This document shows, piece after piece, positions 6,605-42,400 of a stretch of 64,000 nucleotides of DNA. Numbering within the stretch: the stretch's first letter is position 1; every line of letters begins with the position of its first letter. Origin of the DNA: a virus; the IMG/VR virus record IMGVR_UViG_3300005805_000044; one strand, 5' to 3'. The notes under the pieces were generated by a model. It made no database searches and was not told the origin of the DNA. It was given only the letters and a program-made list of their open reading frames with translations. The position numbers and the translations under genes are program-made.

Positions 6605-7271
6605 GTTTTTTATAACAAATTGTTAATGATGGATAATTTTCAATTACAAAAAAGTTGTATAATCGTGTCAACTCTGACTTTTCCAATATTGGCGCAATAG
6701 GAACACAGTTATAGTTAATCATCCATGGAACGTTGTCTCTTGATTTACTACCACCTTCAAACAATATGACACCATTATCTTTTATTTTTGGATAATACTC
6801 TTTGAGTAACTTTTCTATTTTATCTCCAGTATTTGATATGTCAATATGTAATATGTCAATTGAATTATCTTCAAATTTTAAATCAAGGTTCATAGCGTCC
6901 CCCTTGTGAAGATATACATGTTTTTCCATATCAAATCTTTCTAGTTTTAACTTTATGTCATCATATCTTGCATGATTATATTGATAGTCTTCAAATAAAT
7001 CAATTGCTATAATTTTACCTTTTTTATTTTCAAGACAACCTCGTGCAAAACTAAATAATGAATATCCTTCTAAAATACCCATTTCAACAATAAGATCTGG
7101 TTTTCTATCCAATACCAGCTGATAAAATTTGACCCAATAGTTGTGTTTAGTATAAGATGACTTTAATGATTTAATAAATGTAAAGAACATCGTTGCAAAC
7201 CCAGCGGCGCCCGCACTGACAGCGTATTCCTTATAATCAAAAATTAAATTGAGAATGTATTGTGCTTCCAT
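6579..7271 (-). CDS. Class I SAM-dependent methyltransferase (Methyltransf_24-like)
   Basis: IVEMGILEGYS, AIDLF, ILHIDI motifs. ATG 7271 preferred (TATATAT box 4 nt upstream). Confidence 0.75.
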   Translation of the reverse strand: MEAQYILNLIFDYKEYAVSAGAAGFATMFFTFIKSLKSSYTKHNYWVKFYQLVLDRKPDLIVEMGILEGYSLFSFARGCLENKKGKIIAIDLFEDYQYNHARYDDIKLKLERFDMEKHVYLHKGDAMNLDLKFEDNSIDILHIDISNTGDKIEKLLKEYYPKIKDNGVILFEGGSKSRDNVPWMINYNCVPIAPILEKSELTRLYNFFVIENYPSLTICYKKHEQSKTIF

Positions 7272-7287
7272 AAAAATATATAGGTTT

Positions 7288-10321: not shown

Positions 10322-11499
10322 AAAATCATTTCGCTGATCGTTTTATATTGGTCGGTATTAAATTTATCTTTCATGCCATGAATATTATAGGCATTCAAAA
10401 TTGAAACCATATCATTTTCTTTTTCATATATTCCAATGGTTCTATTTAAATTTTCTTCGTATATACTATAAAATTCAAAATCATTAGGATTTTCTATAGA
10501 ATGTAATAGTTCACGCATCAATAAACATCTACGATATGGTTCAACAATTTCCAAATTATTACAGTTTGTTGGTTCTAAACGCTTTTGTCTATACATTGAT
10601 GGAATATAGTCATGTTCACCATATTCACCCTTAAATGGTTTCCAAAACCTATTTGATAAAAATGTAGATAAAGATCCCACATGAAAATCAACAGATGTGG
10701 TTTTGATACTATCAATTAACTGATTATCATGTAAACTTGAATGATATGTTCTATATACATGTTGATCATTAATATTTTCAGGTGTATTTGATAACAACTT
10801 TATTTTTTTCAATTCTGGATTATTATATAGTTCGTATGAATACGCAACAAATGTATCTCCATTACACTCTCTATCCAATACAACTTGTTCGTCACCAATT
10901 TTTATAACGCTTCCAGATGGCCAATTTTTTGAATAAAACTCTCTTGATGATTTAATTAAAAATTTTTTCTTTGACAAAAATAATGTAGGCCAGAAACTAA
11001 GAGCCGAGTCGGCCAGTGGTAATTTTGTATCAATTTGTAATCCGGGTCTATTGCGAACCAAAGGTCTCAACGAATCCAGAAAATATGGTGTTGCGGAACC
11101 CCTTGTAACACCTAACACATCATATTCATTTGTAAAATAGTCGTCAATATGTTCCATCAACAAGTGAGGATTTATAATAAAATCATCCTCTTCCATCAAT
11201 AAAACGTTTTCTTGTATATCTGGTTCATATTTGTTCAACATCAAATCTATATTAAGTCCATGTTGTGCAACCAAATATTCAAAGTTGTCACGTATATTTG
11301 GAAATTTTCTATACAATCTGGTGAGATAGTTCTGTATGAAAATAAAATCCATAGGATTCAATTTACCCATACAATCGACTGATATGAACATGTTTTCAAA
11401 AATATGTGCATACTTTTGTAAGTTGGTTAACCAACAATACATGATAAGTGGTTCACCAGTCGCAGGTAATAATAGTGATATTTTTCGTTCGTTACTCAT
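10318..11499 (-). CDS. Divergent GT-A-like glycosyltransferase
   Basis: LLLP start, QHG, MEEDDF, FWPTLF, GDTF, FHVGSLS. Confidence 0.5.
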   Translation of the reverse strand: MSNERKISLLLPATGEPLIMYCWLTNLQKYAHIFENMFISVDCMGKLNPMDFIFIQNYLTRLYRKFPNIRDNFEYLVAQHGLNIDLMLNKYEPDIQENVLLMEEDDFIINPHLLMEHIDDYFTNEYDVLGVTRGSATPYFLDSLRPLVRNRPGLQIDTKLPLADSALSFWPTLFLSKKKFLIKSSREFYSKNWPSGSVIKIGDEQVVLDRECNGDTFVAYSYELYNNPELKKIKLLSNTPENINDQHVYRTYHSSLHDNQLIDSIKTTSVDFHVGSLSTFLSNRFWKPFKGEYGEHDYIPSMYRQKRLEPTNCNNLEIVEPYRRCLLMRELLHSIENPNDFEFYSIYEENLNRTIGIYEKENDMVSILNAYNIHGMKDKFNTDQYKTISEMIL

Positions 11500-12491
11500 A
11501 CAAGATTTGCCATAAATGACTTAATTGCGATAAATTCTTCATCGAAATTAGAAACTGTATTGAATTTTTTGATTATGTAGTTGCTAACTTCTTCATAATT
11601 TTCAGTCATTTCTCTGATTTTAAATTCAATTTCTTTTTGTGATTTACCATTGACATCAATAATAGTCTTACCATCTTCAAACATCAATGATGCTGTATTT
11701 CCTATCCATCCATTCCAATCAACACCCATGTGCGTGCTATCGGTAATTACTGGTTTACCACATGCAAACGCATTGTGAACATTATGACCATATCCTTCAT
11801 CCACAATCTTACAATGAAATAAGAATCCAAGGTTTCTTATAAACTGTGCCATTTCATCTTCACCATTGTAAATATATCCATCTCGGTTACCAGCACCATG
11901 GGCTTTGAATGTGTAGTCCGGCATGTCCTTTTCAAGTCCATAGAACAATTCCGGCATTTGCATAAAATGTTGAAGATTAGCAATTGATTTTCTATTGCAA
12001 TTTAATTCTTGTCTAAACTTAGTAGTGTCAAATTCTTGATGATAAAATACTTTGTTTTGACATGGATATTGAACATAACAAGGCCAAGAGCTTGATAATA
12101 TATTTTCAAACTTAGTTGGTTGTGCCCATAATGGAATGTTGTTACCAATTTGAAAAATTAATTTGCAACGTAAATCGTATTGTTTTATCAATGTTTGCCA
12201 ACTATGATAATTCTCAAGCAACGTGCATACTACAACATCATAGTAATTGTCTTTAAACTTTTCATAAGAGGCAAGACCTATATGAGGTAAGTATTTTTTA
12301 AAATAAGTGTTATCAAGTTCAGGCGTGATTGTATATCTACCCACTTCTTGAGAATAATTACTATATACAGACCCATCAAAATACCAGTCCCAGCCAGAAG
12401 GAATGTCTAATTCATAGTTTAGTCGTTCCTTAAAAAGGATATAAATGGATCTAAGTAGGGATATGTGGTGGTAATCAGCTAAAACTTTCAT
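11496..12491 (-). CDS. GT-B fold (GT4-like) glycosyltransferase
   Basis: DYHH..L start, G.GNRDG, EGYGHNVHNAFACGKPVI. Confidence 0.6.
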   Translation of the reverse strand: MKVLADYHHISLLRSIYILFKERLNYELDIPSGWDWYFDGSVYSNYSQEVGRYTITPELDNTYFKKYLPHIGLASYEKFKDNYYDVVVCTLLENYHSWQTLIKQYDLRCKLIFQIGNNIPLWAQPTKFENILSSSWPCYVQYPCQNKVFYHQEFDTTKFRQELNCNRKSIANLQHFMQMPELFYGLEKDMPDYTFKAHGAGNRDGYIYNGEDEMAQFIRNLGFLFHCKIVDEGYGHNVHNAFACGKPVITDSTHMGVDWNGWIGNTASLMFEDGKTIIDVNGKSQKEIEFKIREMTENYEEVSNYIIKKFNTVSNFDEEFIAIKSFMANLV

Positions 12492-13645
12492 ATTAGTCTT
12501 TCAATAAATACACGAATCTTTTGGTATTCTTCATCAAAATCAACAACTTCTTTAAATTTATTCATCGCATTTTGTTGAATGTCTGAATAATTGTCAGCAC
12601 ACCACTTTAATCTATTAACCACGCTATCATAGTTATATTTACCCCAATCAACAAATGTAGGTTTGGTTCCATAGTTTTCTGTGTCTAATAATAATTGTGA
12701 TGTAAACCATTCGTCTGGATTACCTCCACTGCACATGTGACTACTATCGGTTATCAACACACTTCCAATTGCGTAAGCTTGATGTATGTTATATCCATAT
12801 CCATCACCAACTGGTTTAACATGATAAACAAAACCAGATTCATTCATCACTCTAGCTATATCATAGTCTGTCTTTAATTCACCATCACGATTGCCTACGC
12901 CATAAGCATTAATTGTCCAATCAGGCAAACGTCGTTCTAATTCATACAGTCCGCCAAGTGTATTACAATTATGACGTATATTGCTTATACTCTTAACATC
13001 TTTAATAGTATTGTCATTTTTAAATATATTCAAATCAAACTCTGGGTGAAAGTATACCATATTACACTTTTTACCATTTCGTCTGTTTTGAAATATTTTG
13101 TGCATACCCTTATACAATTCTTTCTTTTGAAACTTTTTGTATAAAGCTTGCATTGTCCAACCATGAATATCTTCACCCGACACAAATGTGTATGTGGTTG
13201 AATTTAAAAAGTTTGGAACATTAATACTAACATTTCCCCAATTGTTTCCCGCTTCAAATATAAATTTCGCTTGTGGTTGATGGTCCTTAAGCAACTTCAT
13301 ATAAACCGGAATATGTGCTGGAACCGTCGCAATAATAATGTCAAATTTTGTCTGACAGAATTTTTCAAAATCAATTCCTTTATAAGGCAATTTACCATCA
13401 TTTGAATTGACAGTTACGGTTCCATCTTCATTATCTGTAAATGTCTGAAGCCCGTCGTTTCCAAACTGGTTGATCAAAAATTGTTGTGCTACACTCTCAA
13501 TATTAGAATCAACAATTCTCCAATAACCTTGTTTATAAAATTCCATTCCATACGGAACATATAATTCAGCACCCATTCTTTTTTCAAATAGGTGACACAT
13601 TGAATTTACCAAATCTCTATGATGAAAATCACAAAATACTTTCAT
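12488..13645 (-). CDS. GT-B fold (GT4-like) glycosyltransferase
   Basis: DFHH..L start, GVGNRDG, DGYGYNIHQAYAIG. Paralog of 11496..12491. Confidence 0.6.
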   Translation of the reverse strand: MKVFCDFHHRDLVNSMCHLFEKRMGAELYVPYGMEFYKQGYWRIVDSNIESVAQQFLINQFGNDGLQTFTDNEDGTVTVNSNDGKLPYKGIDFEKFCQTKFDIIIATVPAHIPVYMKLLKDHQPQAKFIFEAGNNWGNVSINVPNFLNSTTYTFVSGEDIHGWTMQALYKKFQKKELYKGMHKIFQNRRNGKKCNMVYFHPEFDLNIFKNDNTIKDVKSISNIRHNCNTLGGLYELERRLPDWTINAYGVGNRDGELKTDYDIARVMNESGFVYHVKPVGDGYGYNIHQAYAIGSVLITDSSHMCSGGNPDEWFTSQLLLDTENYGTKPTFVDWGKYNYDSVVNRLKWCADNYSDIQQNAMNKFKEVVDFDEEYQKIRVFIERLI

Positions 13646-14694
13646 AATTTATCAAAAAATTGTTTCCATTGATGTTTAATATTTTCTGCTCCAAAATGTT
13701 GAATAGCAGATTTTCTTCCATTTTCACTGATTTTTCTTCTTAAATCAGAGTTTGTCATAACTTCACGAATACATTGTTTTAAATCAGCAATGCTATTGCT
13801 ACAAAAACCATTTTCGCCATGATTTATCAATTGACTTACTTCATAAGGAAACTTACCAACTTTGCTTGCTAATTCGGTTCCCAAAGCGACAATTGGTATA
13901 CCACTCATCCACGCCTCAATAAAATTCAACGTATATGAAGCAGGCCATGTTCCACTATACAAATAAACTTTATTCTTTGATAGTTCGTGTATTTGGTCTT
14001 GATAAGATAACTCACCACTATTCATAGGAGCAGCTTGGTTACCAGGTCCAAACAACTTGAAGTTAAAATCTTTAGCCACATTTCGTATGAGATCATATCT
14101 ACAGTGATCACCTCTACCAATTACATTTTGACCAAACGTCATTACATAATTTTGATCACCAATGTATGGTAAATAATCAGATTCATATTTTGCAAAACGA
14201 ATCAAAGCATCTTCACCACAATAATTTTCCAATTCACGTTCCAAAGGACTGTATCTTATAATCTTAAGTCCTTCATCACGATATTTTTTCATTTTTGCTT
14301 CAACGTCACCTGTAGATTGACCTATTGTTCTCCAAATGACAGTTTTGTGTTTGATTCGATCCCAATTCTGTTCAATAAATCTGGGAAGATGCATTATCAT
14401 AATAACATCAAATGCTTCAATCATTGCATCTGTCAATAGATTGTTATACTGTTCTGGCTTTACTTCGGGATTGCTTGAATTTACGTGACACATGTCATAA
14501 AACTTTTGAAGATACACTTCTTTATCATCAATGTTCAATGGTGGTCTTCTATCAACAACAGGTGTTTTTGGACGATGATATGCATCATTAGTAAATACAT
14601 CATGACCCAATTCATGCAATAGACGCAATTCGTCATACTCCAAAACACAATGACAACATAAATATAATATTTTTTTCATTTTAATTATAGACAA
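13642..14694 (-). CDS. GT4-family glycosyltransferase
   Basis: LNFIEAWMSGIPIV, INHGENGF, ISENGRK C-terminal GT4 motifs. Confidence 0.75.
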   Translation of the reverse strand: MSIIKMKKILYLCCHCVLEYDELRLLHELGHDVFTNDAYHRPKTPVVDRRPPLNIDDKEVYLQKFYDMCHVNSSNPEVKPEQYNNLLTDAMIEAFDVIMIMHLPRFIEQNWDRIKHKTVIWRTIGQSTGDVEAKMKKYRDEGLKIIRYSPLERELENYCGEDALIRFAKYESDYLPYIGDQNYVMTFGQNVIGRGDHCRYDLIRNVAKDFNFKLFGPGNQAAPMNSGELSYQDQIHELSKNKVYLYSGTWPASYTLNFIEAWMSGIPIVALGTELASKVGKFPYEVSQLINHGENGFCSNSIADLKQCIREVMTNSDLRRKISENGRKSAIQHFGAENIKHQWKQFFDKL

Positions 14695-17088: not shown

Positions 17089-17559
17089 ATGAAGTTTATT
17101 AGTCACAGAGGAAATACAGTCGGTAGACACAAGATTTATGAAAATTGTCCGTCCACCATTCAAAATGTTATATCCATTGGTTATGGTGTTGAAATTGATG
17201 TCTGGTATAAAAACAATAAATTTTTCTTGGGTCACGATGAGCCTGAATGGGAAATTTCAGATCAATTTTTTAAAAACAATTATCAACAATTATTAATTCA
17301 TTGTAAAAACGATGAAGCATTATTTAGATTAAACACCATTCCTATATTGGAACTTTTTACTCATGCTGATGATCCATTCACATTATCAAGCAAAAATGTT
17401 ATATTAATTCATCCACATACTGTTACTACACTAAGAAAAGGCATACTTATAATGCCAGAGATGTCGCACTATACCATCAATGAAATACTTGAATTTGATG
17501 GTATTGTCAGCGACAACATTAAATTTTATGAAAATTGTTATAACTCTATCAGGAAATAG
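17089..17559 (+). CDS. Small PLC/GDPD-like phosphodiesterase
   Basis: ISHRGN, EN, VEIDVW, LGHDEP, IHCKN, GIVSD motifs. Confidence 0.7.
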   Translation: MKFISHRGNTVGRHKIYENCPSTIQNVISIGYGVEIDVWYKNNKFFLGHDEPEWEISDQFFKNNYQQLLIHCKNDEALFRLNTIPILELFTHADDPFTLSSKNVILIHPHTVTTLRKGILIMPEMSHYTINEILEFDGIVSDNIKFYENCYNSIRK

Positions 17560-18352
17560 TGAGAGATTCACGTCTAAGGGATATCCAATCAAGTCTCTAA
17601 TAAAGATTGAGGATAAACGAATCATAGACTATGTTTTAGACATGTTTCCAAATGTAGACGACAAAGATTTTTTGTTTATTGTAAGACGTGAAGATTTGTC
17701 TACACATGGAATTGATAGAGCAATACTTCAATCCAAAGTGTCTAAGATTTTTGCAATAGACAAAAATAATCTTGGACCAGTATATTCCATTTCAAATGCG
17801 TTTGATAGTATACCCGATGATGAAGAAATTGTAGTCTCATACTGTGACTTTACACAAAAGTGGAACTTTGAAGAATTTATAAAATTTTGTAGAGAATCAA
17901 ATTCAGATGGATGTTTGGTAACACATGTCGGATTTGTTCCTCATAAATTATACAACAAATCATTTGCATTTTTGACGGTCAATGAACAAGATAACACAGT
18001 TTCTTATGTTCACGAAAAGAAGCCAATTGATCAAGTAAAACCAAACGAGCCCGCATCAAATGGTATTTATTATTTTAAATCAGGTGCTTTACTCAAAAAA
18101 TACTTCAAACGATTGATGGATGAAAAGGTTTGTGTAAATGGTGAATATTATGTTACTGTGCCATACAATTTAATGATTAACGACGGTCTAAAAATAACTC
18201 ACTACGTAGCAAACAAATACGCGTGTCTAGGTATTCCTACAGACGTTGAGTGTTATAAATCATGGAAATATATAATTGAAAACAATAATGTAAATGAAAA
18301 GTCTGTGGTAGAAGTATATAAGTTTTGGAAAGACTATTTTCGATCAACGTGA
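17528..18352 (+). CDS. BcbE-like sugar nucleotidyltransferase (divergent copy)
   Basis: VITLSGNSERF...PIKSLI, YCD, EKKP, NGIYYF, NGEYYV, LGIP.D. ATG at 17528. Confidence 0.75.
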   Translation: MKIVITLSGNSERFTSKGYPIKSLIKIEDKRIIDYVLDMFPNVDDKDFLFIVRREDLSTHGIDRAILQSKVSKIFAIDKNNLGPVYSISNAFDSIPDDEEIVVSYCDFTQKWNFEEFIKFCRESNSDGCLVTHVGFVPHKLYNKSFAFLTVNEQDNTVSYVHEKKPIDQVKPNEPASNGIYYFKSGALLKKYFKRLMDEKVCVNGEYYVTVPYNLMINDGLKITHYVANKYACLGIPTDVECYKSWKYIIENNNVNEKSVVEVYKFWKDYFRST

Positions 18353-19158
18353 ACTTTCATGAATACGTTCTTCATGTATTGTTCTTCTATTTCAGTCTTA
18401 ATCCACATAGGATTATAACCAGTAAATGCCTTTATAAACTTGTCTTTGGGTATTTTTGAATAATCTTCCAGTAGATTGTGTTCTAAAGCCATGTCGAGAT
18501 CAAGGAGTTTCATGGTCAGTCTATTTGTGACCATCAAATAATAAGCATACACAATATAATCAAAATCTAACCAACATATTTCATGTTTGATTTTTTCATA
18601 ATCAATATAATGTAGAAATTCTTGGTAATAAGATTTGTGGTATACGGGTATGTCATTAAACCAAAAAAATGTCTTAAAATTGTGTGTCAATATTTCCAAT
18701 AACTTTTGATCTTCTGATTTGAAAAACTTTACACAGTTTGTCACTATTTGACTTTGTAGACTTTTTATGTGTGGATTATCATGAATGAAGTTTGCATGTA
18801 TTTTTTGTTGATTGACAAATTGATCAAACATTGTATTGTAGTCAACCTTTTTTACAAACAAAGAATCAACATCCATCACTGCTATATTCACATAATCTGT
18901 ATTACTGTATATGTGATTTAGCCCGAACCACTTTTTTGTTGTAATTATGCCTTTTAATTCTGGATCATATGAATCGGTGTATATAATCGATTTATACTTT
19001 ACATCATACTGTTTATTAAAATCTTCATGTTCTTTTTCACTGGAAAATACCAAGAAGATATTATCATCATCAAATATATCATTATAACTTTTAACAAAAT
19101 CATAACCGTATCTAAACTTAGCGTCATGAATTGGTGCTAAAAAACAAGATTTATTCAT
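18334..19158 (-). CDS. Putative GT-A-like glycosyltransferase
   Basis: LAPIH start, KKWFG, VMDVDS (DxD). Confidence 0.45.
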   Translation of the reverse strand: MNKSCFLAPIHDAKFRYGYDFVKSYNDIFDDDNIFLVFSSEKEHEDFNKQYDVKYKSIIYTDSYDPELKGIITTKKWFGLNHIYSNTDYVNIAVMDVDSLFVKKVDYNTMFDQFVNQQKIHANFIHDNPHIKSLQSQIVTNCVKFFKSEDQKLLEILTHNFKTFFWFNDIPVYHKSYYQEFLHYIDYEKIKHEICWLDFDYIVYAYYLMVTNRLTMKLLDLDMALEHNLLEDYSKIPKDKFIKAFTGYNPMWIKTEIEEQYMKNVFMKVHVDRK

Positions 19159-20518
19159 GTTTGTAATTTTTAAGAAAATATTCTAAATCTTCAGGTGTTC
19201 CCAACCCCCACATTTTTTCAATGTTGTAGGTTCTAACTTTCTTTCCATCTTGAATGGCCTCATTAAATACAGGGCACACATAAAACTCGTTGTTGACTCT
19301 GATGTTCTTATTGATCATCTGTTCAGCATACTTGACATAATCAGAGCCACGACGCCAATAATAAACTCCCACAGTGGCAACATCACTGATTGGCTTCTTT
19401 TCAGCAACCTCAGTAACATATCCAAATTCATTTAACTTCGCAAAACTCCATTTTGGATGTGTTGATTTAAATGTAAGAATATTAGCATCCAAATCACTTG
19501 CACCACAATGATACATAAAGTCGTCACTATCCCATTCTACAAACTGATCACTATTAGCAATTATAAGAGGATCATTGTTATTAATATATTCCTTTGCTAA
19601 TAATGTGGTGATAGCAGCTCCTTCGGTCACTCCCTCTATCTGAATAATTTTGTTGTTTGGACAAAAATTATTTATTGTGTCTTTGAGATTATACTGTTCA
19701 TAATGACCTTTTTGAACAATAAAAATATACTTGGCATCCACATTCAAATTATCAACAACCCATTGAATCATTGGCTTACCACGAACGTCAATCAGTGGTT
19801 TAGGAAAAGTATATCCAGCTTTTTCAAATCGACTTCCCGCTCCTGCCATTGGAATGATTACGTTCATTTTCCCCCCTTGCCATTTGGGTCTTTTGATATT
19901 TTTATTGATACAATCTATATGTTCTATAATATTTTCATACGTAATATCGTGTGGATTATTCACACCAAGTAAATAAGCACCGCTATTATTTGCAGCATTA
20001 CGTCCAATAACACTGTCCTCAACAATAAGAGTTTCTTTTGGTGTAACACCAGATTGAATCATCGATTTCAAATAAATTTCAGGATGTGGTTTTGAATGTT
20101 TAACATCTTCATTTGACAGATAAAAATCAATATACTCTAAAAGTCCCAATTTCAAAAGTGTGATCTTAACACTATCACGAATACTGTTACTAGCTACCGC
20201 AATTTGACACTTTTGTTTGAGTTTCTTAAGAACTTCTATTAGTCTAACATCGGGTTGCAACTCTCTTAACATCTGAGAAGTATAAAGTTGTTTACGCATC
20301 CATATACTTTCAAACTCCATCCCACTCAGTCCTTTTTCTCTACCAAGAATTTCCAATTTTTTATATGTGCTTAATCCATCATACTTAGAAAGATGTTCTT
20401 GATATGAAATTTCATATTTTGAATCAACATCACGTAATGCTTTATTTAAAGCATCATAATGAAGTTTTTTAGTCTCTACCAATACACCATCTAAATCAAA
20501 AATGATCAATTTAATCAT
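19151..20518 (-). CDS. HAD phosphatase fused to BcbE-like sugar nucleotidyltransferase
   Basis: N-terminal FDLDGVL, VASN, KPHPEIY, VEDS..G. C-terminal IIPMAGAGSRF..PKPLI, NSDQ, AEKKPIS, NNEFYV, LGTPEDL. Confidence 0.88.
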   Translation of the reverse strand: MIKLIIFDLDGVLVETKKLHYDALNKALRDVDSKYEISYQEHLSKYDGLSTYKKLEILGREKGLSGMEFESIWMRKQLYTSQMLRELQPDVRLIEVLKKLKQKCQIAVASNSIRDSVKITLLKLGLLEYIDFYLSNEDVKHSKPHPEIYLKSMIQSGVTPKETLIVEDSVIGRNAANNSGAYLLGVNNPHDITYENIIEHIDCINKNIKRPKWQGGKMNVIIPMAGAGSRFEKAGYTFPKPLIDVRGKPMIQWVVDNLNVDAKYIFIVQKGHYEQYNLKDTINNFCPNNKIIQIEGVTEGAAITTLLAKEYINNNDPLIIANSDQFVEWDSDDFMYHCGASDLDANILTFKSTHPKWSFAKLNEFGYVTEVAEKKPISDVATVGVYYWRRGSDYVKYAEQMINKNIRVNNEFYVCPVFNEAIQDGKKVRTYNIEKMWGLGTPEDLEYFLKNYKHE

Positions 20519-20525
20519 AAAATTG

Positions 20526-23174
20526 TTACAAATTTTTGTATATGTTTGAATTTACCATTGTTTCTAAGAAATGACCAATCTCCACTTTGTAGCGTATTGT
20601 TTTTAAATATAAATGTGCTCTGCGAATAAGATCATAATCTTTTAACTTGTCTTCCAGATCATATATACTGTCAATATATAATGGATATGATTCTCCTAAA
20701 TATTCAACAACTGCTGGTAGTCTATTTATAAATAATGGTGTTCCACGTGCAATACACTCAATTATTACGTTATTAGCACTACAATCATACAAATCTAAAT
20801 ATACTAAATTTTCTGACAAAATTTTATCATATTCATCATTTGATAAAAAGTCTAATGTTTTTACAGACTTTCTTTGTTCATCTGTAATATGTTGATTACT
20901 GGTGATTTCCTCGATTTTCTCTAACTCAAAGATCTTATCTTTAGAGTTGTTGTTGGATAACAATCTTATTTTTTTGTAATCGTTTGTTTTTACTGTATAT
21001 AAAGCATTTAGTTTTCGTAACCACCATCCAATAGTTACTAATTTTTTATCTTCATTTTTTACAAATTTATCAAAATCAAATTGTAACTCTGGTATTTCAG
21101 TGGGATGAAATAAACTTTCAACTGGCACATGCGGAATATATTTTCTCACAATTTTAGCATGATATTCTGACAATGTATATATTCCTTTACATTTTCTCAA
21201 ACTTTCTATAAAATATGGATCTTTAAATATTAAATTATTAAACACATTTATATCAGAAAACCATGGCGGTATATTTGGGGGGTTGTGTATGAAACCAATC
21301 CAGGACTTACTGTATGGTATTGTATTTTTTAAAATACATTCATATTTTCTCATCGCAAAGTTATTTTCAATAAACCCATCGCAATATACTCCGTTGTTTG
21401 AATTTAATGCACTTAACCCATGTAAAACGTAATTCCATCCAGATCTATGTGAATAGAAAGAAAGTTGTTTTTCTAAACTAATTTTTTTATTAAATTTGTT
21501 TGAGTCAACAATATTTTTAAATTTAATAATAATATCTCCATATTGTCCTTTATCAACTATAACAGATTTATTAATAACTTTTAGTGCATTTTTGAATATA
21601 GATTCATCGAAATTTTCTTCACGTAATTGCAATCTACTGGTATTGTTTTTTATACCGTTAACATAAATATCTACCAATTTAATTCCATATTCTTTGTTTT
21701 GTTCACGACCTATATTAGTTCCATTAGATGTAGTTTCTATATAAAACTTAATGTGTTTTTTATCTTTTGAAATGATTTTAAATGAATACTGGCCACGTTT
21801 TAAATCGTAAGTTTTTTCTATACCATCTACATTCAATCTAAACGATGTGTTTTTTGTAATTTCTAATACTGCTTCGAATTTTAATACACTGTCGCCTACA
21901 ACAATTTCGGCTTCTTTTTTGCTCCATACTCCATTAATTATATTTTCTTTATGCCATCCATCTTTTAACCATATTGGAAACAATGATGAATTTTCTGTGT
22001 CTGTGGTATATGGTTTGTATAATTCAATACTTTCAAAATAAATTGATTTGTTAATATTAACATAATACGATTCTTTAAGTTGATTTACAAAATCATCATA
22101 AGATGGAGATATTCCTTTTGTATTCAAACTTATCCACAATGATTGATTTCGTGAAGACTTATCTCTACTTGATATATTTATCGTGTTATAATTAACCTCA
22201 TATAAATTTTTGTAATCATGCAAATAATCTGTGAGTCCACCATGTAAAGGAGTAACTATATATTTATTTTTTATTTTGGAATTAAAACATGGCAAATTAA
22301 ATCCTTCACCATTAGAAGCGTTGATGTATATATCGACATTATCATATAAACTTTGCATTTGATCAAATGTCATGAAATCATCAATTATTATAATAGGAGC
22401 ATATGCAAAATTTTTATTTTTATTTTTTATTTTATTGACAATAATTTTTTTGATATTATCGTCAGATTGTTTTAAATTCTCTTTAAGATCAGTTAATTTT
22501 AATATTAAAACAGTTTCATCTTCATAACTAAATGTATCCAAATAAGACTCAACTATGAAATTAATATTTTTTCTTAATGCTAATGAAGAAACATTCAAAA
22601 ACTTTACACGGTCAATAATTCTCTCAAAATTTATTGGAACTGAACTATACACCTTCGCATGATTAATTAAATCAACTAATTGATATTTTTTATATGAAAT
22701 ATCTGGAATTGTGTGTGGTTCAACAATTATGTCTTTTTTGACACCAGAATTAATAAAAATTTCTCTGCACCATGTAGATGGCACACTCACAATGTTGACA
22801 ATACTTTTATTTATATGATTGACCCAATCTTCTGGCAAAGGATCAAAATCCCACACAGTTCTACCTATTATTTTTTTATCAAATAATAGATCTTTATTTT
22901 CTTCAATCAATCTATTCCATGTATCGGGAGATGAGTGTATAACTACTTCAGCACCTTCTAACTTTTTAATACGATTAAATAACGGTAACTTTTTTACATT
23001 ATTTTTATAAAAGTTGTAATATTCAGTTCCATCATTTTTATGAGGTATAGTTAAAGGGTAAAAATATACTTCATTATCATTTTTTATTAAATCATAAATA
23101 TACCCTTTTATCGCATTCGCATATCCACTTACACCATCTGCTCCAAAATAAATAACTTTTTTCTTAGAATCCAT
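20526..23174 (-). CDS. Multidomain glycosyltransferase (GT4 + beta-sandwich module + second GT-B-like domain)
   Basis: VSGYA, RKN, GEGFNLP; central GWHKE..VWS; C-terminal HRSGW and SANNVIIECIARGTP. Confidence 0.75.
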   Translation of the reverse strand: MDSKKKVIYFGADGVSGYANAIKGYIYDLIKNDNEVYFYPLTIPHKNDGTEYYNFYKNNVKKLPLFNRIKKLEGAEVVIHSSPDTWNRLIEENKDLLFDKKIIGRTVWDFDPLPEDWVNHINKSIVNIVSVPSTWCREIFINSGVKKDIIVEPHTIPDISYKKYQLVDLINHAKVYSSVPINFERIIDRVKFLNVSSLALRKNINFIVESYLDTFSYEDETVLILKLTDLKENLKQSDDNIKKIIVNKIKNKNKNFAYAPIIIIDDFMTFDQMQSLYDNVDIYINASNGEGFNLPCFNSKIKNKYIVTPLHGGLTDYLHDYKNLYEVNYNTINISSRDKSSRNQSLWISLNTKGISPSYDDFVNQLKESYYVNINKSIYFESIELYKPYTTDTENSSLFPIWLKDGWHKENIINGVWSKKEAEIVVGDSVLKFEAVLEITKNTSFRLNVDGIEKTYDLKRGQYSFKIISKDKKHIKFYIETTSNGTNIGREQNKEYGIKLVDIYVNGIKNNTSRLQLREENFDESIFKNALKVINKSVIVDKGQYGDIIIKFKNIVDSNKFNKKISLEKQLSFYSHRSGWNYVLHGLSALNSNNGVYCDGFIENNFAMRKYECILKNTIPYSKSWIGFIHNPPNIPPWFSDINVFNNLIFKDPYFIESLRKCKGIYTLSEYHAKIVRKYIPHVPVESLFHPTEIPELQFDFDKFVKNEDKKLVTIGWWLRKLNALYTVKTNDYKKIRLLSNNNSKDKIFELEKIEEITSNQHITDEQRKSVKTLDFLSNDEYDKILSENLVYLDLYDCSANNVIIECIARGTPLFINRLPAVVEYLGESYPLYIDSIYDLEDKLKDYDLIRRAHLYLKTIRYKVEIGHFLETMVNSNIYKNL

Positions 23175-25385: not shown

Positions 25386-26024
25386 TTACTTTTTGAAAGC
25401 AGCTGCTAATCCATAGTCGTCTAGATTAGTGCAATACTCTATCACAGTGTAAATGTTTCTGTCAATGAAATCCAAAAATATATTTGGTCCTGGATGATAA
25501 TTGGTATCGTGAAATATTACAACACCTTTGTCTGATAACAAATCTGAATACTTCCAGTCATTAATAACAGTATTGATTGAGTGCCATCCATCTATGAACA
25601 ATACATCTATTTTGTTCATACCAATTTCTTTAAGATAATTTCGAATAATATCTTGATCATGAGAGTTGGATCTGATTGTATATACTTTGTTTTCGTTATC
25701 GTTTAGAAAAGATTTATCGTCTAAATCGATTCCACAATAAATTCCATCTTTAGTTTTTCGTTTTATTAATGTATGAGTAAATGACCTATTTCCATTACGT
25801 GCCACACCAATCTCTACTATATTTTTTACTAAAATTTTATCTAAAATTGTCTCCAAAGAACTCAAATTACAATCAGTTATTTCTAGATATGGTCTAATTT
25901 CTTCATAAGCATATCCCATATCATCGTAATTATTTAAATCCGGGTTGACAAAACTTGGAATTTGTAGTAATCCAAATATATCAGTTTTGTATTTGACTAT
26001 TTGATCTTTATAACACTCTTTCAT
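25386..26024 (-). CDS. Class I SAM-dependent methyltransferase (Methyltransf_24-like)
   Basis: IVEIGV, GID, LFIDGWH, VIFHDT. Confidence 0.8.
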   Translation of the reverse strand: MKECYKDQIVKYKTDIFGLLQIPSFVNPDLNNYDDMGYAYEEIRPYLEITDCNLSSLETILDKILVKNIVEIGVARNGNRSFTHTLIKRKTKDGIYCGIDLDDKSFLNDNENKVYTIRSNSHDQDIIRNYLKEIGMNKIDVLFIDGWHSINTVINDWKYSDLLSDKGVVIFHDTNYHPGPNIFLDFIDRNIYTVIEYCTNLDDYGLAAAFKK

Positions 26025-26027: not shown

Positions 26028-26354
26028 TCAATCGTTATATTTGTCATTTGCTACTGATGGTGTTTTGATTACTATCAATTCACAATCTTCAAGAAATATT
26101 GGTTTGACCGATTCATTTTTATCAACAACAAAGATTTTGCCAGCATCAATTAAAACATTGTTGATTAACATTTTACCACGAATCAAAAAGTTAATCTCGG
26201 TGCTTAACTTGTGATGGTGTTTTGGCCACTCTTCATCTTTATAATGAAGTTTGTAACTCACTTCGAATTGATCAGTCTTAAATACTGTTGGTTCAAAGTT
26301 TCCAATAAACCAACCTCCTTGTTTCATGTATGGGTTAGAATCAAAAATTTGCAT
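26028..26354 (-). CDS. Small cupin-fold protein
   Basis: GWFIGNFEP, HHHK..TEIN (cupin motif 1), GKM, VIKTPS..DK. Confidence 0.72.
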   Translation of the reverse strand: MQIFDSNPYMKQGGWFIGNFEPTVFKTDQFEVSYKLHYKDEEWPKHHHKLSTEINFLIRGKMLINNVLIDAGKIFVVDKNESVKPIFLEDCELIVIKTPSVANDKYND

Positions 26355-27078
26355 ATAACTTTTTAAATTTCTCTAAATCTTGTGGTATACCTATTGGATA
26401 ATGTTCATTGAAGAAATATTGAATTACTTTCATTCCATCATCAATCATATAATTGTAACTAGGTGCGATGTAAAATTCATTGTTTACTGTGTCATTATTG
26501 GCAAACATTTTATCACACGAATTGTAAAAATGTTTTGCTTTAGACCAATAGTGTAAACCATTCGTTGCATAATTGCTTAATACTATCTTTTCCTTAATTT
26601 GAGTTATATTTCCTTCATCGTCTAATTTGATATAACTATTCTTGGAACTGTTTGAATAAAATGTGCCGACCACACCATCAACACCATTCTTATTTGCAAA
26701 ATTAATAAATTTAGGCAAATCAAGATCAAAAATTATCTGGTCACAATTGACTATAATTAACTGTTCTTCTTCATCCAATACTTCTTTTGTAAGATAACAT
26801 GTTTTTGCCGGTCCAGCTTGTAGCTCGTCAACAATAAAATATGTAACATCTATGTCTTGTTCTTTAATATATTCGTAGATGGTATCTATAATATTGTATT
26901 TGGACTCATGTTCTTTTAAGATACAAACTGTAAATGATACATTTAAATGTTGATTAAAGTTTTCCAACACTCTTGCAAGCATAGGTTTTCCATTGACATC
27001 CAACAGAGGCTTGGGTTTGTTTGTATTGAATCTTTTACCCAACCCAGCTGCTGGAATAACAATGTTTAAATGATTCAT
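26341..27078 (-). CDS. BcbE-like sugar nucleotidyltransferase
   Basis: IVIPAAGLGKRF..PKPLL, NCDQ, KEK, NNEFYI, IGIPQDL. ATG 27078 overlaps the RLP stop (ATGA). Confidence 0.85.
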   Translation of the reverse strand: MNHLNIVIPAAGLGKRFNTNKPKPLLDVNGKPMLARVLENFNQHLNVSFTVCILKEHESKYNIIDTIYEYIKEQDIDVTYFIVDELQAGPAKTCYLTKEVLDEEEQLIIVNCDQIIFDLDLPKFINFANKNGVDGVVGTFYSNSSKNSYIKLDDEGNITQIKEKIVLSNYATNGLHYWSKAKHFYNSCDKMFANNDTVNNEFYIAPSYNYMIDDGMKVIQYFFNEHYPIGIPQDLEKFKKLYANF

Positions 27079-28277
27079 TTTTTGCCCCACACTTCTATAG
27101 CTTTGTTATATTCCTCGCCATACACCTTATTTATTGCCTGAACCATAGCTTTAACCCCAGCCTTGGCTCCCATAGGATGTGATGAAATAGATCCTCCAAC
27201 ATTTCCCATCCAGTCAACATGACCAAGTTCATTGGTTATATAATCAATCAAACCAGGATGTAGGCCACAACTCAAAGCTGATACTGAATTCAACTCTACT
27301 AGTTTTTTGATTGATCGTTTCAAACTTTCGGAATCGCTGTTGAGATATCCACCAATCATACCTACATGAAGCGTAGAACATCCACATCTACTAGCAATTT
27401 CAAATAATACCGTTTCATTTATAGAAAAATTATGTTGTGGATTTGTCCAAAGTCTATCTCCACTCTTTTGATAGTGAAGATACATATTTCTGAATGAATC
27501 TTTTACCAACTTATAAGCACCATATCCACTATGAATATTGATGTGGACACCATTGATACCCATCTTTTCTATTTTCTCCACACGACTTTCTAAGTATTTA
27601 TGGTCGCATGTAATGGATGGACAATATACCAACTTAATATTGTTTGTGCGTATATAATTTGCTACACGTTCTAGTCTTTTTCTAATTGAACAAAATGATT
27701 GGTTAGACAATATTTCATCTTCTTTAATAAAGTTACAACCATTGTCTGCATAAATTTTAAACACCTCAAAGTAATCTTCCGCATTCAATCCAATCTTTGG
27801 TTTGATAATTCCACCAAACAATGGTTTATTGTAAGTATTAGTTAACTTACGTATTTCATTCAATCCTAAATTTGGACCAGAAAAGAATGATCTGAAATGT
27901 AGTGAAAATTCAATGTCTTCCAATCTACATTTTTCAATTATATCAATATCAAGTTGTCCGCCCATCAATGTAGTAAGAAAATGTGAGATACCATCCTCTT
28001 TATAATTAAAATTAGTATCCGGGTAAAATATTACTACCTTACCCTCACTTTTATTTGTTTCTTCTACAGATATGATTTTACAACAAAATTTTTCTATTAG
28101 TTTGTCTGTTTCAAACTCAGACCGTTTATTGGGATTGCCAATGCTTTGGCCAATTGCAATTGCTTTAGCAGCTTCATGCAATGTCGTTTTACTTTTTACA
28201 ATGTAGGTAACAAAATTACCATCTTTAACTTCGGACCTATTTTTATAGATAAGACTTTCTATGTTTGATTTTGTCAT
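27075..28277 (-). CDS. RuBisCO-like protein (form IV RLP)
   Basis: RLEDI.F, F.GP.LG, GGIIKPKIGL, NFIKEDE, LHVG, SCGLHPG, VGG.I.SHPMG are collinear with RuBisCO large subunit motifs. ATG 28277 (track start TTG 28292). Confidence 0.88.
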   Translation of the reverse strand: MTKSNIESLIYKNRSEVKDGNFVTYIVKSKTTLHEAAKAIAIGQSIGNPNKRSEFETDKLIEKFCCKIISVEETNKSEGKVVIFYPDTNFNYKEDGISHFLTTLMGGQLDIDIIEKCRLEDIEFSLHFRSFFSGPNLGLNEIRKLTNTYNKPLFGGIIKPKIGLNAEDYFEVFKIYADNGCNFIKEDEILSNQSFCSIRKRLERVANYIRTNNIKLVYCPSITCDHKYLESRVEKIEKMGINGVHINIHSGYGAYKLVKDSFRNMYLHYQKSGDRLWTNPQHNFSINETVLFEIASRCGCSTLHVGMIGGYLNSDSESLKRSIKKLVELNSVSALSCGLHPGLIDYITNELGHVDWMGNVGGSISSHPMGAKAGVKAMVQAINKVYGEEYNKAIEVWGKK

Positions 28278-28302: not shown

Positions 28303-30960
28303 TCAGAAACTAAAGAATTCACCCAAAGTTTTGTCGGTTTGATTAGGATAATCCCAATTCAAAATATTATAAAAATCCATGAGTTTACCCTTCAACTCTT
28401 GTTCATACATGGCGGTTCTATCCACATATTTGTTAATGAAGTCGATGATTTGGTCTGGATCTGTTCCATCCGCTTTCAATGCAATACACTCTGATCCATA
28501 TTCATTTGATTTGAGATATACCCACTTAATCTTTTGTCCATGAAAGATTGGAGGAACCATCTTGTCAAGACCCCAATGTTGCAATAAGTCATTGTAAAAC
28601 AAAGCTGCCTTTGCCTGTGCAGTTGTTCCTTTGATATACTTGAACTTACTACGAGTCTTAGGATTATAGTCAGTCTTTGATTCACCACCACTCTTGAATT
28701 TTACACTAGTGTTCTTGGCAATTTCAATAACTGGAGAATCAACCAAATTTTTATCAAGAAACGTCAAGATATTTTGATCAATCACTTGTTTATCAGTCTT
28801 GCGAAGAATATCATTCAAAAACTGTTGCATGAACTTTCTGAACTGAATTGGAAATGACGTTCTAACTACGTCAATACCTTTCACTTCCATTTCATTAACA
28901 ACCAACCCACCATTGTTGATGATGAACTGGGCATAACGTTTCTTTGCCAACCAAAATCCAGTCTTGGCAATAACTTCTTGTTTTGCGTCAAACCGATGTT
29001 TTTCAATATTGAAGAATCGAAGAGACATCATATCATAAAACTTGTTTACAAACGATTGAACCTCACCAGTGACTTTGAGAATAGCCTCAGTCATCGCCTT
29101 TTCATCGTTCGTATCAATATCAGGCATGTTTTTCTGAATAATGGGAAGCGCACTTGCGAAACAAGAATCTGTATCGGTGTAGATCACCCAATCACCATCA
29201 GTTTCGTTTAGTGTCTTCTTGAAATATTCATTGATCGCTTTACCCGTCGTCTTGATGATATCTTGACCAGTTATAGTGACAGCGCTCGCATTATCCTTGT
29301 CATAGAATCTAAAAATCGGTAGACCCAATACACCATAAATGGAATTGAGAAGAACCTTTTGCACCTTCTGACGTTGTTCATAAAACTCATACATTCCCTC
29401 ATCACCTTTCTTATGATAATCCTTTGCCAACTTACGCATTTCTTTACGTTCATCGAACCACTTCACAAGAATCTCGGGAATAACACCTGGTATATCTTTG
29501 TTATACAATACACCGTTACTTGCAACACTCAAATTGGATTCGGATATTAACTTTTTGAATTGTTCGTGTGAATATACATTACCACCAATATGATACGAAG
29601 ACACTCTGTTTTGTGTAAACATCTTTGCATTATAGATATACAACTTCTGTTGAATATATTCTTCCAACGGAGTTTCTTTTTGTGTTGAATCACTCAGATT
29701 GTTATAATCTTCAGTCAACTCAGCTCTGCGATCTGCAACATATTGATCATCATATTCAATACGTTCAATCACAGCTATCTTGGTCTCAGGTGATATGTTA
29801 AGACTGATGATGATATTTGGATACATTGATGTAAGGTCCAAATCAAATACCCACTCATAACGACCAGGCTTAGGAGCCTTAACATACGCACCTTCAAATC
29901 CTTCTTCATTTTCATCAAGTCTCTGTTCATACTCCTCACGACCTTCCAAAGGTTTGTTCTTGGCAACTTGACCCTTACGGCGAAGATACATAAGAATCGC
30001 ACCCTCAATGAATCGTGAACTCATTTGATAACAATCATAAGGCACATGACCTTTATGACAAATAGCTCTAGCCAACTCAATAAACTGTAGTTTCTTCTCC
30101 AGTGCCACAATGATCTGCACGTCATTCAAGTTATACTCGACATATTTGTTGATGTCGGATTTATACAGATCATCCAAACTACCCTTGTAGGTAATCTTTT
30201 CCATGTTGACGATCTTTTTACCAATCGCACCCAATGCGTAACTTGGCTCTTTCTTGATGTTCAACTTTTCATACAACTTCATGTAATCCAAGTGAGTTAC
30301 ACCGGCAACAACCAACTTTTTACTCCAATCGTTTATATAAACAGTTCCAATCGGACTCATTCGTTTTGCTTGAGATGGTCCAATTACATTCTTCATTCTT
30401 CGATACAGATATGGCATATCGAATTGTTCACTGTTCCATCCAGTCACAATTGTAGGTTGAATTTCTTCCCACTTGGTAATAAAGTGAGTCAACAAACTAT
30501 CTTCATCAGTAAAACAACGAATTTCACGATTATCACTATCAGTGTCTTCCATCAAACCATTTCTGTCCAAAATAAAAGCGGTATACTTTGACGTAAGACT
30601 GTCATAAATTGCAATAGCGGTGATTTCCTTGTCTGCTTCATCAACATTTGGAAAACCACCTTCAGTGCTGACTTCAATATCAAGATACAATACACGATGA
30701 CCTTCAGATACATCGTCACTGTCTTCATACGCATCAATTAGAATACGTGTCTCAATAGGAACGTCTGATTCAAACAGCGATGGATCACGGGGATTAAAAC
30801 TATAAACCTTTTCCAAGTCATCACCAAAGATACTCTTGTATTTACCGTTTGGACGTTTACGATATGCATAAGGACGAAATACAAAACTGGTGTAACCCTT
30901 CTTATCGTCCCAAAGATGACATGTGTTCGTTTTCTTGTCGAAATAAATGTTCTGATACAT
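28303..30960 (-). CDS. gp43: Family B DNA polymerase (gp43-like)
   Basis: DIE exonuclease, GWN..FD, YN..D, DLTSMYP, K..LNS.YG, YTDTDS, KKRY. Confidence 0.95.
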   Translation of the reverse strand: MYQNIYFDKKTNTCHLWDDKKGYTSFVFRPYAYRKRPNGKYKSIFGDDLEKVYSFNPRDPSLFESDVPIETRILIDAYEDSDDVSEGHRVLYLDIEVSTEGGFPNVDEADKEITAIAIYDSLTSKYTAFILDRNGLMEDTDSDNREIRCFTDEDSLLTHFITKWEEIQPTIVTGWNSEQFDMPYLYRRMKNVIGPSQAKRMSPIGTVYINDWSKKLVVAGVTHLDYMKLYEKLNIKKEPSYALGAIGKKIVNMEKITYKGSLDDLYKSDINKYVEYNLNDVQIIVALEKKLQFIELARAICHKGHVPYDCYQMSSRFIEGAILMYLRRKGQVAKNKPLEGREEYEQRLDENEEGFEGAYVKAPKPGRYEWVFDLDLTSMYPNIIISLNISPETKIAVIERIEYDDQYVADRRAELTEDYNNLSDSTQKETPLEEYIQQKLYIYNAKMFTQNRVSSYHIGGNVYSHEQFKKLISESNLSVASNGVLYNKDIPGVIPEILVKWFDERKEMRKLAKDYHKKGDEGMYEFYEQRQKVQKVLLNSIYGVLGLPIFRFYDKDNASAVTITGQDIIKTTGKAINEYFKKTLNETDGDWVIYTDTDSCFASALPIIQKNMPDIDTNDEKAMTEAILKVTGEVQSFVNKFYDMMSLRFFNIEKHRFDAKQEVIAKTGFWLAKKRYAQFIINNGGLVVNEMEVKGIDVVRTSFPIQFRKFMQQFLNDILRKTDKQVIDQNILTFLDKNLVDSPVIEIAKNTSVKFKSGGESKTDYNPKTRSKFKYIKGTTAQAKAALFYNDLLQHWGLDKMVPPIFHGQKIKWVYLKSNEYGSECIALKADGTDPDQIIDFINKYVDRTAMYEQELKGKLMDFYNILNWDYPNQTDKTLGEFFSF

Positions 30961-41459: not shown

Positions 41460-41737
41460 TTATAAGCGACTATCAATCATTTTATAATTTAGTTAAAAAC
41501 GACAATCCTTATGTTGGTAATTTGTTGGGAAATTGTATTACTGTTTTAAACAAAATTTGTTCGTGTAATAAAACAAGAAAATCAACTAAAGCAGAAGAAT
41601 GTAATAAAATTTATATAGATTATATTCAATCAAATGGTGATGGTTTAATTGAATACTTCAGAACAAAAACAAATGATGCGGAAGTGATATTTAATCACAA
41701 CACGCATCATCTCATTCTAAAGTTAAAATTAAGATAA
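41456..41737 (+). CDS. Hypothetical protein
   Basis: 93-aa coupled ORF with CSC motif. Confidence 0.55.
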   Translation: MIISDYQSFYNLVKNDNPYVGNLLGNCITVLNKICSCNKTRKSTKAEECNKIYIDYIQSNGDGLIEYFRTKTNDAEVIFNHNTHHLILKLKLR

Positions 41738-42400
41738 TATATTTTTTTTGGCAATCAAACCAATTGAAGTCAATGCTTTTTTAACTTCATCTCTAATATA
41801 TGTGCATTCAAGTAGTTCTTCTTTGGTTTTGTATCTACTAGACATATCTTCCCACTCAAAAGAATAATCAGACCGTTTCTTTACCTTTGGATCATTAAAT
41901 AATTCGTGTTCATTAGGAGCTGCTTCATAAATCTTGACAGGTTTAGCCGTTGTAACTCTTCGTTTTGAAGGTGCCTGACTCAATTGATATCGCGTTACAT
42001 GAATTAACTTACCTGCTTGTTTGTATTGTAACCACGTGCATTCGTCTTCTGGATACACATCATATCGAATATCAGTGATAAAAAAGATATCTGCTTTTGA
42101 CTTAGCAACGTGTTTTTCCATCTTTTGTGTCCAATATTTGCCCGCACTTGTCTTTCTCATTACATCTCCATATGCGACCAACAACGGTCGAATTATGTTT
42201 TTAAGAGCAGTATCTTCGGTAAATACGTCGATACCAGTTTTATTATGAATCAATTCTTGGAGATCACTCTTGAGTTCGTAAGCAAGTGCTCTACGTTCGG
42301 TTTTTAATTTGTATTCTTTTTCTAGAATGTCTTGTGCTACTGTTGTAAACAAATCTTTACCACTTCTTGCAATTCCAGATATACCTATAACTTTTGCCAT
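41729..42400 (-). CDS. Deoxynucleoside monophosphate kinase-like P-loop protein
   Basis: GISG.ARSGKD, ALA..LK, RPLL..YG..R, ITDIRY. Confidence 0.72.
   Translation of the reverse strand: MAKVIGISGIARSGKDLFTTVAQDILEKEYKLKTERRALAYELKSDLQELIHNKTGIDVFTEDTALKNIIRPLLVAYGDVMRKTSAGKYWTQKMEKHVAKSKADIFFITDIRYDVYPEDECTWLQYKQAGKLIHVTRYQLSQAPSKRRVTTAKPVKIYEAAPNEHELFNDPKVKKRSDYSFEWEDMSSRYKTKEELLECTYIRDEVKKALTSIGLIAKKNILS

Follow-up and report, generated by a model that had tools for sequence, protein, structure and literature searches.

RuBisCO-like proteins (RLPs) are the classic case of one fold gaining new chemistry, and the few RLP clades to which, to our knowledge, a function has been assigned all serve catabolism or salvage. 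The closest described counterparts of the gene considered here are the 'Form IV-like' RLPs, of which about 80 non-redundant examples were reported from contigs of putative phages (part of them classed as Myoviridae) and with which two Beckwithbacteria sequences group; residue logos were given for these proteins, and the main text left their function open (Jaffe, Castelle, Dupont and Banfield, 2019, Mol Biol Evol; PMC6389311). The 64,000-nucleotide stretch of DNA analysed here (the window; IMG/VR virus record IMGVR_UViG_3300005805_000044) carries on its minus strand an RLP gene (27075..28277) that appears to be a further member of this clade, since it resides on a myovirus-type phage genome and groups in our tree with a Beckwithbacteria copy; this placement is made by grouping and by the published description rather than by comparison with the published sequences. 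Full-text searches of the literature to November 2026 found no function assigned to the clade. The best functional clue is the conserved linkage of the RLP to a nucleotidyltransferase (NTase), a small cupin and a protein resembling glycerophosphodiester phosphodiesterases (GDPD-like). The explanation that we favour, to which we give about an even chance, is that the RLP is a Mg-dependent, enolising, non-carboxylating enzyme that makes a keto-sugar or keto-alcohol monophosphate, and that the NTase activates this product for glycan decoration. Measured against the main text of PMC6389311, which discusses none of them, the linkage to the NTase, cupin and GDPD-like protein, the gene fusions and the members from SAR11, Legionella and DPANN archaea are additions.

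The RLP gene is a single, intact open reading frame (ORF) encoding 400 residues from its ATG, and its product matches RuBisCO_large (PF00016, 7e-31) and RuBisCO_large_N (PF02788, 3.5e-7), both above cut-off. The AF2 model, built on 57 relatives (pLDDT 93.8, pTM 0.91), has the RuBisCO large-subunit fold, with the N-terminal alpha/beta domain and C-terminal TIM barrel of the superfamily. Foldseek aligns it with RuBisCOs and RLPs at TM 0.82-0.88, placing form III RuBisCOs on top (TM 0.87, 20-24% identity) and the Chlorobium RLP and MtnW structures slightly lower (TM 0.82). Form III RuBisCOs are also the nearest PDB sequences (phmmer, E about 1e-30 to 1e-25), and the C. tepidum RLP 1ykw (E 2e-17, TM 0.82) is no nearer than true RuBisCOs. 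This proximity in sequence and fold would speak for a true ribulose 1,5-bisphosphate carboxylase operating in nucleotide (AMP) salvage, like archaeal form III enzymes or the form II/III enzymes of the Candidate Phyla Radiation (CPR). However, the protein scores far under the curated cut-off of every RuBisCO or RLP model in NCBIfam (158 vs 438 bits for form I/III, 152 vs 497 for form III and 102 vs 489 for form II), neither AMP phosphorylase nor ribose-1,5-bisphosphate isomerase is among the 49 window proteins scanned against Pfam, and K334, E60, N123, H294 and R295 (spinach numbering) are all replaced, so that we give a carboxylase next to no chance. A tblastn search of 50,697 GenBank phage records with the RLP returned no match, nor did any PHROG family match it.

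Active-site residues were called from phmmer alignments to form III structures and from a MAFFT alignment with form IC RbcL, MtnW, OiaX and three RLPs encoded beside four-carbon acid-sugar kinases (references taken from annotated plasmids), and the two agreed. The RLP retains K175, K177, K201, D203, E204, H327, S379, G381, G403 and G404, and it is substituted at E60G (then Q), T65N, W66P, N123G (then Q) and D202E and, in its C-terminal part, at H294Q, R295K, H298D, K334Y and G380C. The corresponding motifs read AIGQSIG, LMGGQ, IKPK, KEDE, LHYQKSG, GMIGGYL, LSCGLHPG and NVGGS. The initial annotation had arrived by eye at the same retained residues (K175/K177, K201, D203/E204, H327, S379/G381 and G403/G404) and the same changes (KEDE, Q/K at H294/R295, Y at K334, E60 and N123 replaced), and the formal alignments agree with it throughout, with every quoted motif present.

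In carboxylating enzymes, addition of CO2 is stabilised by the K334-E60 pair, N123 and H294, while R295 and H298 form the site for the second phosphate (P2). The RLP thus appears to have kept the Mg/carbamate enolisation core and the P1 phosphate pocket and to have lost the CO2-addition residues together with the P2 site. As none of the K334/E60 pair, N123 and H294 is retained, the protein is predicted to be non-carboxylating, in keeping with the earlier view that it does not fix CO2; the six residues by which a bona fide RuBisCO is recognised (K334, E60, N123, H294, R295 and H298) are Y, G, G, Q, K and D here. Because the P1 pocket is kept and the R295/H298 site is gone, the substrate most likely carries one phosphate.

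It could be argued that a retained P1 and a lost P2 site suit a ketose 1-phosphate whose tail bears no phosphate, as with MtnW or the Rhodospirillum rubrum methylthioribulose-1-phosphate isomerase (established enzymology), and that the RLP salvages a by-product of S-adenosylmethionine (SAM) on behalf of the phage's SAM-dependent methyltransferases. Several methyltransferase genes do lie nearby, and a B12/radical-SAM gene occurs in CPR loci. However, the protein reaches 99 bits against TIGR03332 and 131 against PRK09549, where the MtnW cut-offs are 514 and 409, and in place of the MtnW lysine the family carries Q or H. Moreover, mtnA, mtnK, mtnP and mtnX occur in none of 65 related loci (nor do mtnX, mtnK or mtnA occur in the window), whereas the NTase is almost always there. 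Salvage of this kind therefore has only a slim chance of being the function.

The remodelled active site is shared across the family. Among 138 relatives (39-76% identity) the residue pattern varies little or not at all, and this holds equally for the replacement residues G60, N65, G123, Q294, K295, D298 and Y334, with Q or H at position 124 after G123. K159, K185, D187 and E188 of the RLP (K175, K201, D203 and E204) are invariant in all 138, as are K177 and the glycines of the P1 pocket, and copies from Pelagibacter, Legionella, Francisellaceae, Verrucomicrobia and Turneriella have the identical active-site pattern. Such near-invariance across relatives of this divergence argues that the active site has been selected and remodelled, and that it reflects neither chance nor decay. 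The proposal of an intact carbamate/Mg site beside an altered P2 site likewise extends to these 138 relatives, in which K201, D203 and E204 are invariant and R295 and H298 replaced, carbamylation itself being assumed. It is conceivable that the RLP has lost catalysis and persists as a relic, or that it serves a structural or regulatory purpose, given that activity has been shown for no family member. However, the metal ligands, the catalytic lysines and some 45 further positions do not vary among phage, bacterial and archaeal members that are 40% identical overall, which makes such a role very improbable. A correlated variant, H124/S295/A298/Q327, is found in about 25-30 of the 120 closest database relatives (P0003-P0121) and suggests a subfamily whose substrate differs in its tail; none of the retrieved loci, examined for its gene context, carries it.

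The initial annotation, accurate on the residues, had overlooked both the phage carriage and the linkage. In the window, the NTase gene (26341..27078, minus strand; 245 residues, Pfam NTP_transferase 2.4e-13) begins with an ATG that overlaps the RLP stop codon as ATGA, and it is overlapped by 14 nt by the gene for a single-domain cupin of 108 residues (26028..26354, minus strand). This cupin sequence alone matched nothing in Pfam; its metal motif (HxH...E) is complete, it is similar to small cupins of the sugar-isomerase type, and its profile (A3) matches small cupins including the 113-residue 'mannose-6-phosphate isomerase' 7zvm. A SAM-dependent methyltransferase gene follows in the same operon (25386..26024, minus strand; Methyltransf_24/CmcI-like, Pfam 4e-7) and belongs to the cassette in several related phage loci. 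Scans for promoters and terminators around the operon gave nothing above chance. The fourth cassette member, a miniature GDPD-like phosphodiesterase of 156 residues (17089..17559, plus strand), stands 9.5 kb from the RLP gene, which it adjoins in most related loci. Its invariant residues H6, R7, E35, D37 and H49 are the catalytic His/Arg/Glu/Asp/His of glycerophosphodiester phosphodiesterases, its profile (A2) matches the GDPD 3i10 (2e-5), and its AF2 model (pLDDT 96.7) has a compact GDPD-like fold whose top Foldseek matches are weak, all of them to GDPDs.

To quantify the linkage, ORFs around the RLP were clustered in 18 viral and 47 GTDB loci and rescored with HMMs built from the cassette proteins, and counts were taken over the 46 loci in which the RLP is flanked by 3 kb or more on each side. 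An NTase of one family, about 245 residues long, is encoded no more than 3 kb from the RLP in 43 of these 46 loci and directly beside it in 27, against a background of 10 matches in 551 more distant ORFs. The 108-residue cupin is found in 26 loci, including all 17 well-flanked viral ones, and the GDPD-like protein of about 150 residues in 27. From locus to locus the order of the genes varies and the set is kept. The loci belong to phages and to SAR11, Legionella, Francisellaceae, Verrucomicrobia, Turneriella, CPR and DPANN. Fusions join the same partners: two metagenomic proteins of 813 and 817 residues (P0122 and P0123) consist of RLP (1-393), NTase (398-639) and cupin (711-816) and carry the same active-site motifs, and one viral locus (L018) encodes an NTase-cupin fusion. 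In SAR11 the cassette is chromosomal, between thyX and mrp/hflK, and DPANN cassettes include a full-length GDPD and a second NTase. Two loci assigned to cellular genomes, a 372-kb contig in an 'uncultured bacterium' metagenome-assembled genome (L020) and one in a Saccharibacteria genome of the same kind (L019), have RLPs that nest in the phage clade and show the phage-type order GDPD-NT-cupin-RLP; they may represent phage DNA binned in error, conceivably that of a very large phage.

The neighbours that support a role in glycan decoration are glycan genes. The RLP-NTase pair adjoins a LicD-family phospho-alcohol transferase gene in three cultured Legionella species, the CPR and DPANN loci have WavE, GT2 and FkbM methyltransferase genes nearby, a GDP-mannose dehydratase gene stands beside the cassette in many phage loci, and the window itself is rich in glycosyltransferases. 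The window also encodes two paralogues of the cassette NTase. One is fused to a HAD domain of the beta-phosphoglucomutase/phosphatase type (19151..20518, minus strand; 455 residues, HAD_2 2.2e-30 with NTP_transf_3), a fusion that recurs in related loci and in cyanophage S-CAM9, and the other is a protein of 290 residues (17480..18352, plus strand; NTP_transferase 5.3e-7) that clusters with the cassette NTases.

The NTase profile (A4) best matches PDB 4evw, an uncharacterised 'NDP-sugar pyrophosphorylase' of Vibrio cholerae (1.7e-36), followed by mannose-1-phosphate and glucose-1-phosphate nucleotidyltransferases (1e-11 to 1e-8). This resemblance to sugar-1-phosphate enzymes raises the possibility that the order is reversed, such that the NTase first makes a nucleoside diphosphate (NDP)-sugar and the RLP acts as an epimerase or keto-isomerase on an NDP-keto-sugar, with the beta-phosphate in the P1 pocket, by analogy with the cupin-type enzymes RmlC and FdtA. 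Neither linkage nor fusion fixes the order of reactions, and the dehydratase that adjoins the cassette in many phage loci, GDP-mannose 4,6-dehydratase, makes 4-keto sugars. However, the known substrates of the RuBisCO superfamily are all small phosphorylated sugars or acids in open-chain form, which the closing of loop 6 seals in, the minimal cassettes of Legionella and SAR11 lack the dehydratase, and room for a nucleotide is supported by no structure. We therefore regard the reversed order as unlikely, although it is the strongest of the competing explanations.

The same NTase family also occurs in other settings, being matched over its full length in phages S-SKS1 and S-CAM9, in the HAD fusion of the window and on E. 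coli and P. aeruginosa plasmids. In Synechococcus phage S-SKS1, the 475-residue protein SWZG_00042 (L072:6025-7452), annotated as a 3,4-dihydroxy-2-butanone 4-phosphate (DHBP) synthase alone, joins a cassette-family NTase (2e-62) to a complete DHBP synthase (RibB; PF00926, 5e-65), which suggests nucleotidyl activation of a riboflavin-pathway intermediate or derivative. An IncP plasmid of P. aeruginosa PA83 (L074:5998-9148) carries a module of the order NT-PDE-HAD-NT-cupin without an RLP, whose NTase and cupin match the cassette profiles at 6e-78 and 2e-36; its NTases are labelled 'glycosyltransferase family 2', probably a misnomer. On an E. coli capsule plasmid, a cassette-family NTase lies beside a kinase and a TagF-like polymerase. 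Like the window, the S-SKS1 fusion and the P. aeruginosa module place these NTase and cupin families in sugar or glycan gene clusters, whereas in the fusion and the RLP-less modules the place of the RLP as the partner that transforms the sugar phosphate is taken by RibB, a HAD enzyme or a kinase. Because one NTase family is thus fused to, or encoded beside, a DHBP synthase, a HAD protein or a kinase, the RLP seems to be one interchangeable front end among several, each supplying the NTase with a small phosphorylated sugar.

DHBP synthase performs Mg-dependent enediol chemistry on ribulose 5-phosphate, and the phosphate of its product is non-anomeric. Since this enzyme occurs fused to the same NTase family, the RLP route might, by analogy, plausibly start from a pentulose phosphate and end in an NDP-linked keto-alcohol. 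The fusion may also be taken to show that a skeleton-rearranging enzyme can feed this NTase family, so that the RLP could do likewise, its enediolate attacking a carbon electrophile other than CO2, or the enzyme cleaving or rearranging the skeleton, to yield a branched or shortened sugar phosphate. It would be consistent with such chemistry that the enolisation core is intact and that the CO2-specific residues have all been exchanged for other invariant ones (Y334, Q294, G60/Q61, G123/Q124). However, direct evidence for it is lacking, simple isomerase or enolase chemistry fits the data equally well, and most characterised RLPs (MtnW and the R. rubrum isomerase) are isomerases or enolases, the decarboxylase OiaX being the exception. 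We consider it improbable, about as much so as SAM salvage. Two described capsule proteins are possible relatives of the window NTase: BcbE, which Pasteurella multocida requires for the fructose side chain of its type B capsule (PMC13552107), and the 241-residue product of a BcbE-like ORF in a capsule cluster of Vibrio, which has an NDP-sugar-transferase fold (PMC11641403).

In the explanation that we favour, the RLP would bind Mg2+ through carbamylated Lys185 (the K201 equivalent), Asp187 and Glu188, hold one phosphate in the glycine-rich P1 pocket (G338, G361 and G362) and enolise a keto-sugar or keto-alcohol monophosphate drawn from host central metabolism, converting it by proton-transfer chemistry such as epimerisation or migration of the carbonyl. 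The NTase, which is translationally coupled to the RLP, would turn the product into an NDP-linked donor, which the small cupin and the GDPD-like protein would process further, and phage glycosyltransferases and methyltransferases would use the donor to decorate a glycan of the host envelope, the virion or the DNA.

Several points weigh against this scheme. Carbamylation of K201 is assumed, the order of reactions is not given by gene linkage, and the GDPD-like gene of the window is remote from the RLP. Sugar-1-phosphate NTases normally need an anomeric phosphate, which proton transfer on a ketose phosphate does not yield; the NTase would therefore have to accept a non-anomeric phosphate, and the DHBP synthase fusion suggests, by analogy, that it may be able to. 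Retention of the P1 pocket favours a ketose 1-phosphate as the substrate, yet in the most common ketose phosphates of the host the phosphate sits at the other end.

A more far-reaching version, which we hold only tentatively, makes the RLP the committed step of a so far undescribed pathway that would lead from a ketose phosphate of central metabolism to a rare keto-sugar or keto-alcohol, activated by a nucleotide, for surface glycans in phages, SAR11, Legionella, CPR and DPANN. The RuBisCO fold would then have its first role in anabolism and glycan building. As part of this same tentative proposal, the chemistry would be new to the superfamily, with a loop-6 tyrosine in place of the lysine, and might be carbonyl migration, epimerisation or even the formation or rearrangement of a C-C bond, in parallel to the DHBP synthase fusions.

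The RLP gene is phage-borne, on a genome of the T4-like, myovirus type. Its cassette sits within the phage replication module, and the gene directly upstream encodes a T4-type family B DNA polymerase, PolB (28303..30960, minus strand; Pfam DNA_pol_B, phrog_262 3.2e-175), whose nearest cultured counterpart is that of Microcystis phage Mel-JY01 (44% identity). Further replication and repair genes specify a gp44/RFC-like clamp loader, a gp32-like single-stranded DNA-binding protein, RecA/UvsX, a DnaB-like helicase, an RNase H-like 5'-3' exonuclease, a class I ribonucleotide reductase, a dUTPase and UvdE. The polymerase, the RFC-like clamp loader and the low GC content (about 32%) at first suggested an archaeal (DPANN) origin. 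This was rejected because the polymerase belongs to phrog_262 (3e-175), because gp32-like, UvsX, DnaB-like, RNase H-like and ribonucleotide reductase genes are present, and because the record nearest to the window is viral. That record, an IMG/VR virus (G001), lacks the RLP gene; relatives of the RLP are found on 18 IMG/VR contigs of up to 196 kb.

At least eight glycosyltransferase-like genes lie in the window, including one for an 882-residue protein between the sugar genes and the clamp loader (20526..23174, minus strand; phrog_2170 glycosyltransferase, 8.7e-14). Eleven codirectional, close-packed genes for proteins of 159-393 residues occupy 4102-14694 on the minus strand, and only three of them match Pfam, namely a Methyltransf_24 gene (6579-7304), a weak GT1 gene (11496-12491) and a Glyco_trans_1_2/GT1 gene (13642-14694), all on that strand; the block probably encodes highly divergent glycan-modifying enzymes. 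Next to it, two tandem paralogues (2953-3531 and 3531-4100, minus strand) each match just the first 75 or so positions of DUF3431. In the replication region, a phosphomevalonate-kinase/dNMP-kinase-like protein (41729-42400, minus strand) and a UvdE UV-damage endonuclease (43446-44357, minus strand) are encoded. A 392-residue protein of the DruA family (44827-46005, minus strand) matches PF14236 over nearly its full length (7.4e-19), and such a homologue of a component of Druantia defence is unexpected within a T4-like phage genome. At 46708-49794 (minus strand), a MoxR-like AAA_5 ATPase of 325 residues is followed by a 694-residue protein without a family match; the usual partner of MoxR ATPases is a vWA protein.

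Since it is encoded beside, or fused to, a sugar-activating enzyme in phages, SAR11, Legionella and very small bacteria and archaea, the RLP probably supplies an unusual building block for surface sugars. If this is true, it would bring to light a new activated sugar, showing how phages rebuild host or virion glycans, with consequences for receptor masking and host range in the ocean. The clade is large, with hundreds of sequences, and is present in abundant marine SAR11 and their phage-like relatives, in Legionella, in CPR and in DPANN. Near-universal linkage to the NTase, together with the natural fusions, makes the function directly testable with two or three purified proteins.

How, then, does this family relate to described systems? 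In a quick tree with few references, built without labelled DeepYkr, Photo or GOS (Global Ocean Sampling) sequences, 61 family members, including the Beckwithbacteria copy (L030), are split from MtnW, OiaX-type RLPs and form I with support of 99. Within them the window RLP falls in a phage-only subclade of six, and Beckwithbacteria and Patescibacteria copies branch beside the phage-rich clade. The family may be identical with the clade called 'IV-GOS'. The 65 marine RuBisCO homologues that the 2007 GOS paper placed outside all known forms may be its SAR11 and phage members. With the clade of PMC6389311, as its main text describes it, the window RLP has in common carriage on T4-like or myovirus contigs, strong divergence and the loss of several catalytic and substrate-binding residues, and we see no difference in kind. 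The suggestion of a distinct RLP subfamily with new chemistry thus holds as far as separation from MtnW, OiaX and kinase-linked RLPs is concerned; the clade as such had already been reported in PMC6389311, and the chemistry may or may not prove new.

Form III RuBisCOs (Thermococcus kodakarensis 1GEH/3A12; 8DHT) are nearest in PDB fold and sequence, yet all of their carboxylation-specific residues are replaced in the RLP. OiaX and the RLPs linked to acid-sugar kinases resemble it in being non-carboxylating and acting on phosphorylated keto compounds. However, they keep H294, R295 and K334, and the kinase-linked ones also E60, T65 and N123, whereas the RLP is changed at all of these positions; its identity to them is 21-25%, and it scores 91.5 bits against the OiaX model NF042437, whose cut-off is 700. 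They are encoded beside DUF1537-type kinases in catabolic clusters for apiose and acid sugars, whereas no such kinase lies near the RLP. MtnW (YkrW), the 2,3-diketo-5-methylthiopentyl-1-phosphate enolase, shares with the RLP the RuBisCO fold, the retention of K175, K201, D203, E204 and the P1 glycines and the loss of K334, and its substrate is a monophosphate. It differs, at 27% identity, in keeping H294 and in having K at 123/124 (B. velezensis), where the RLP family has Q294 and G123 followed by Q or H124, and the reference mtnW gene adjoins mtnX. By its residues, the RLP thus appears to match no characterised RLP among those compared, and, whereas the OiaX and kinase-linked proteins stand beside DUF1537-type kinases in catabolic clusters, it stands beside an NTase.

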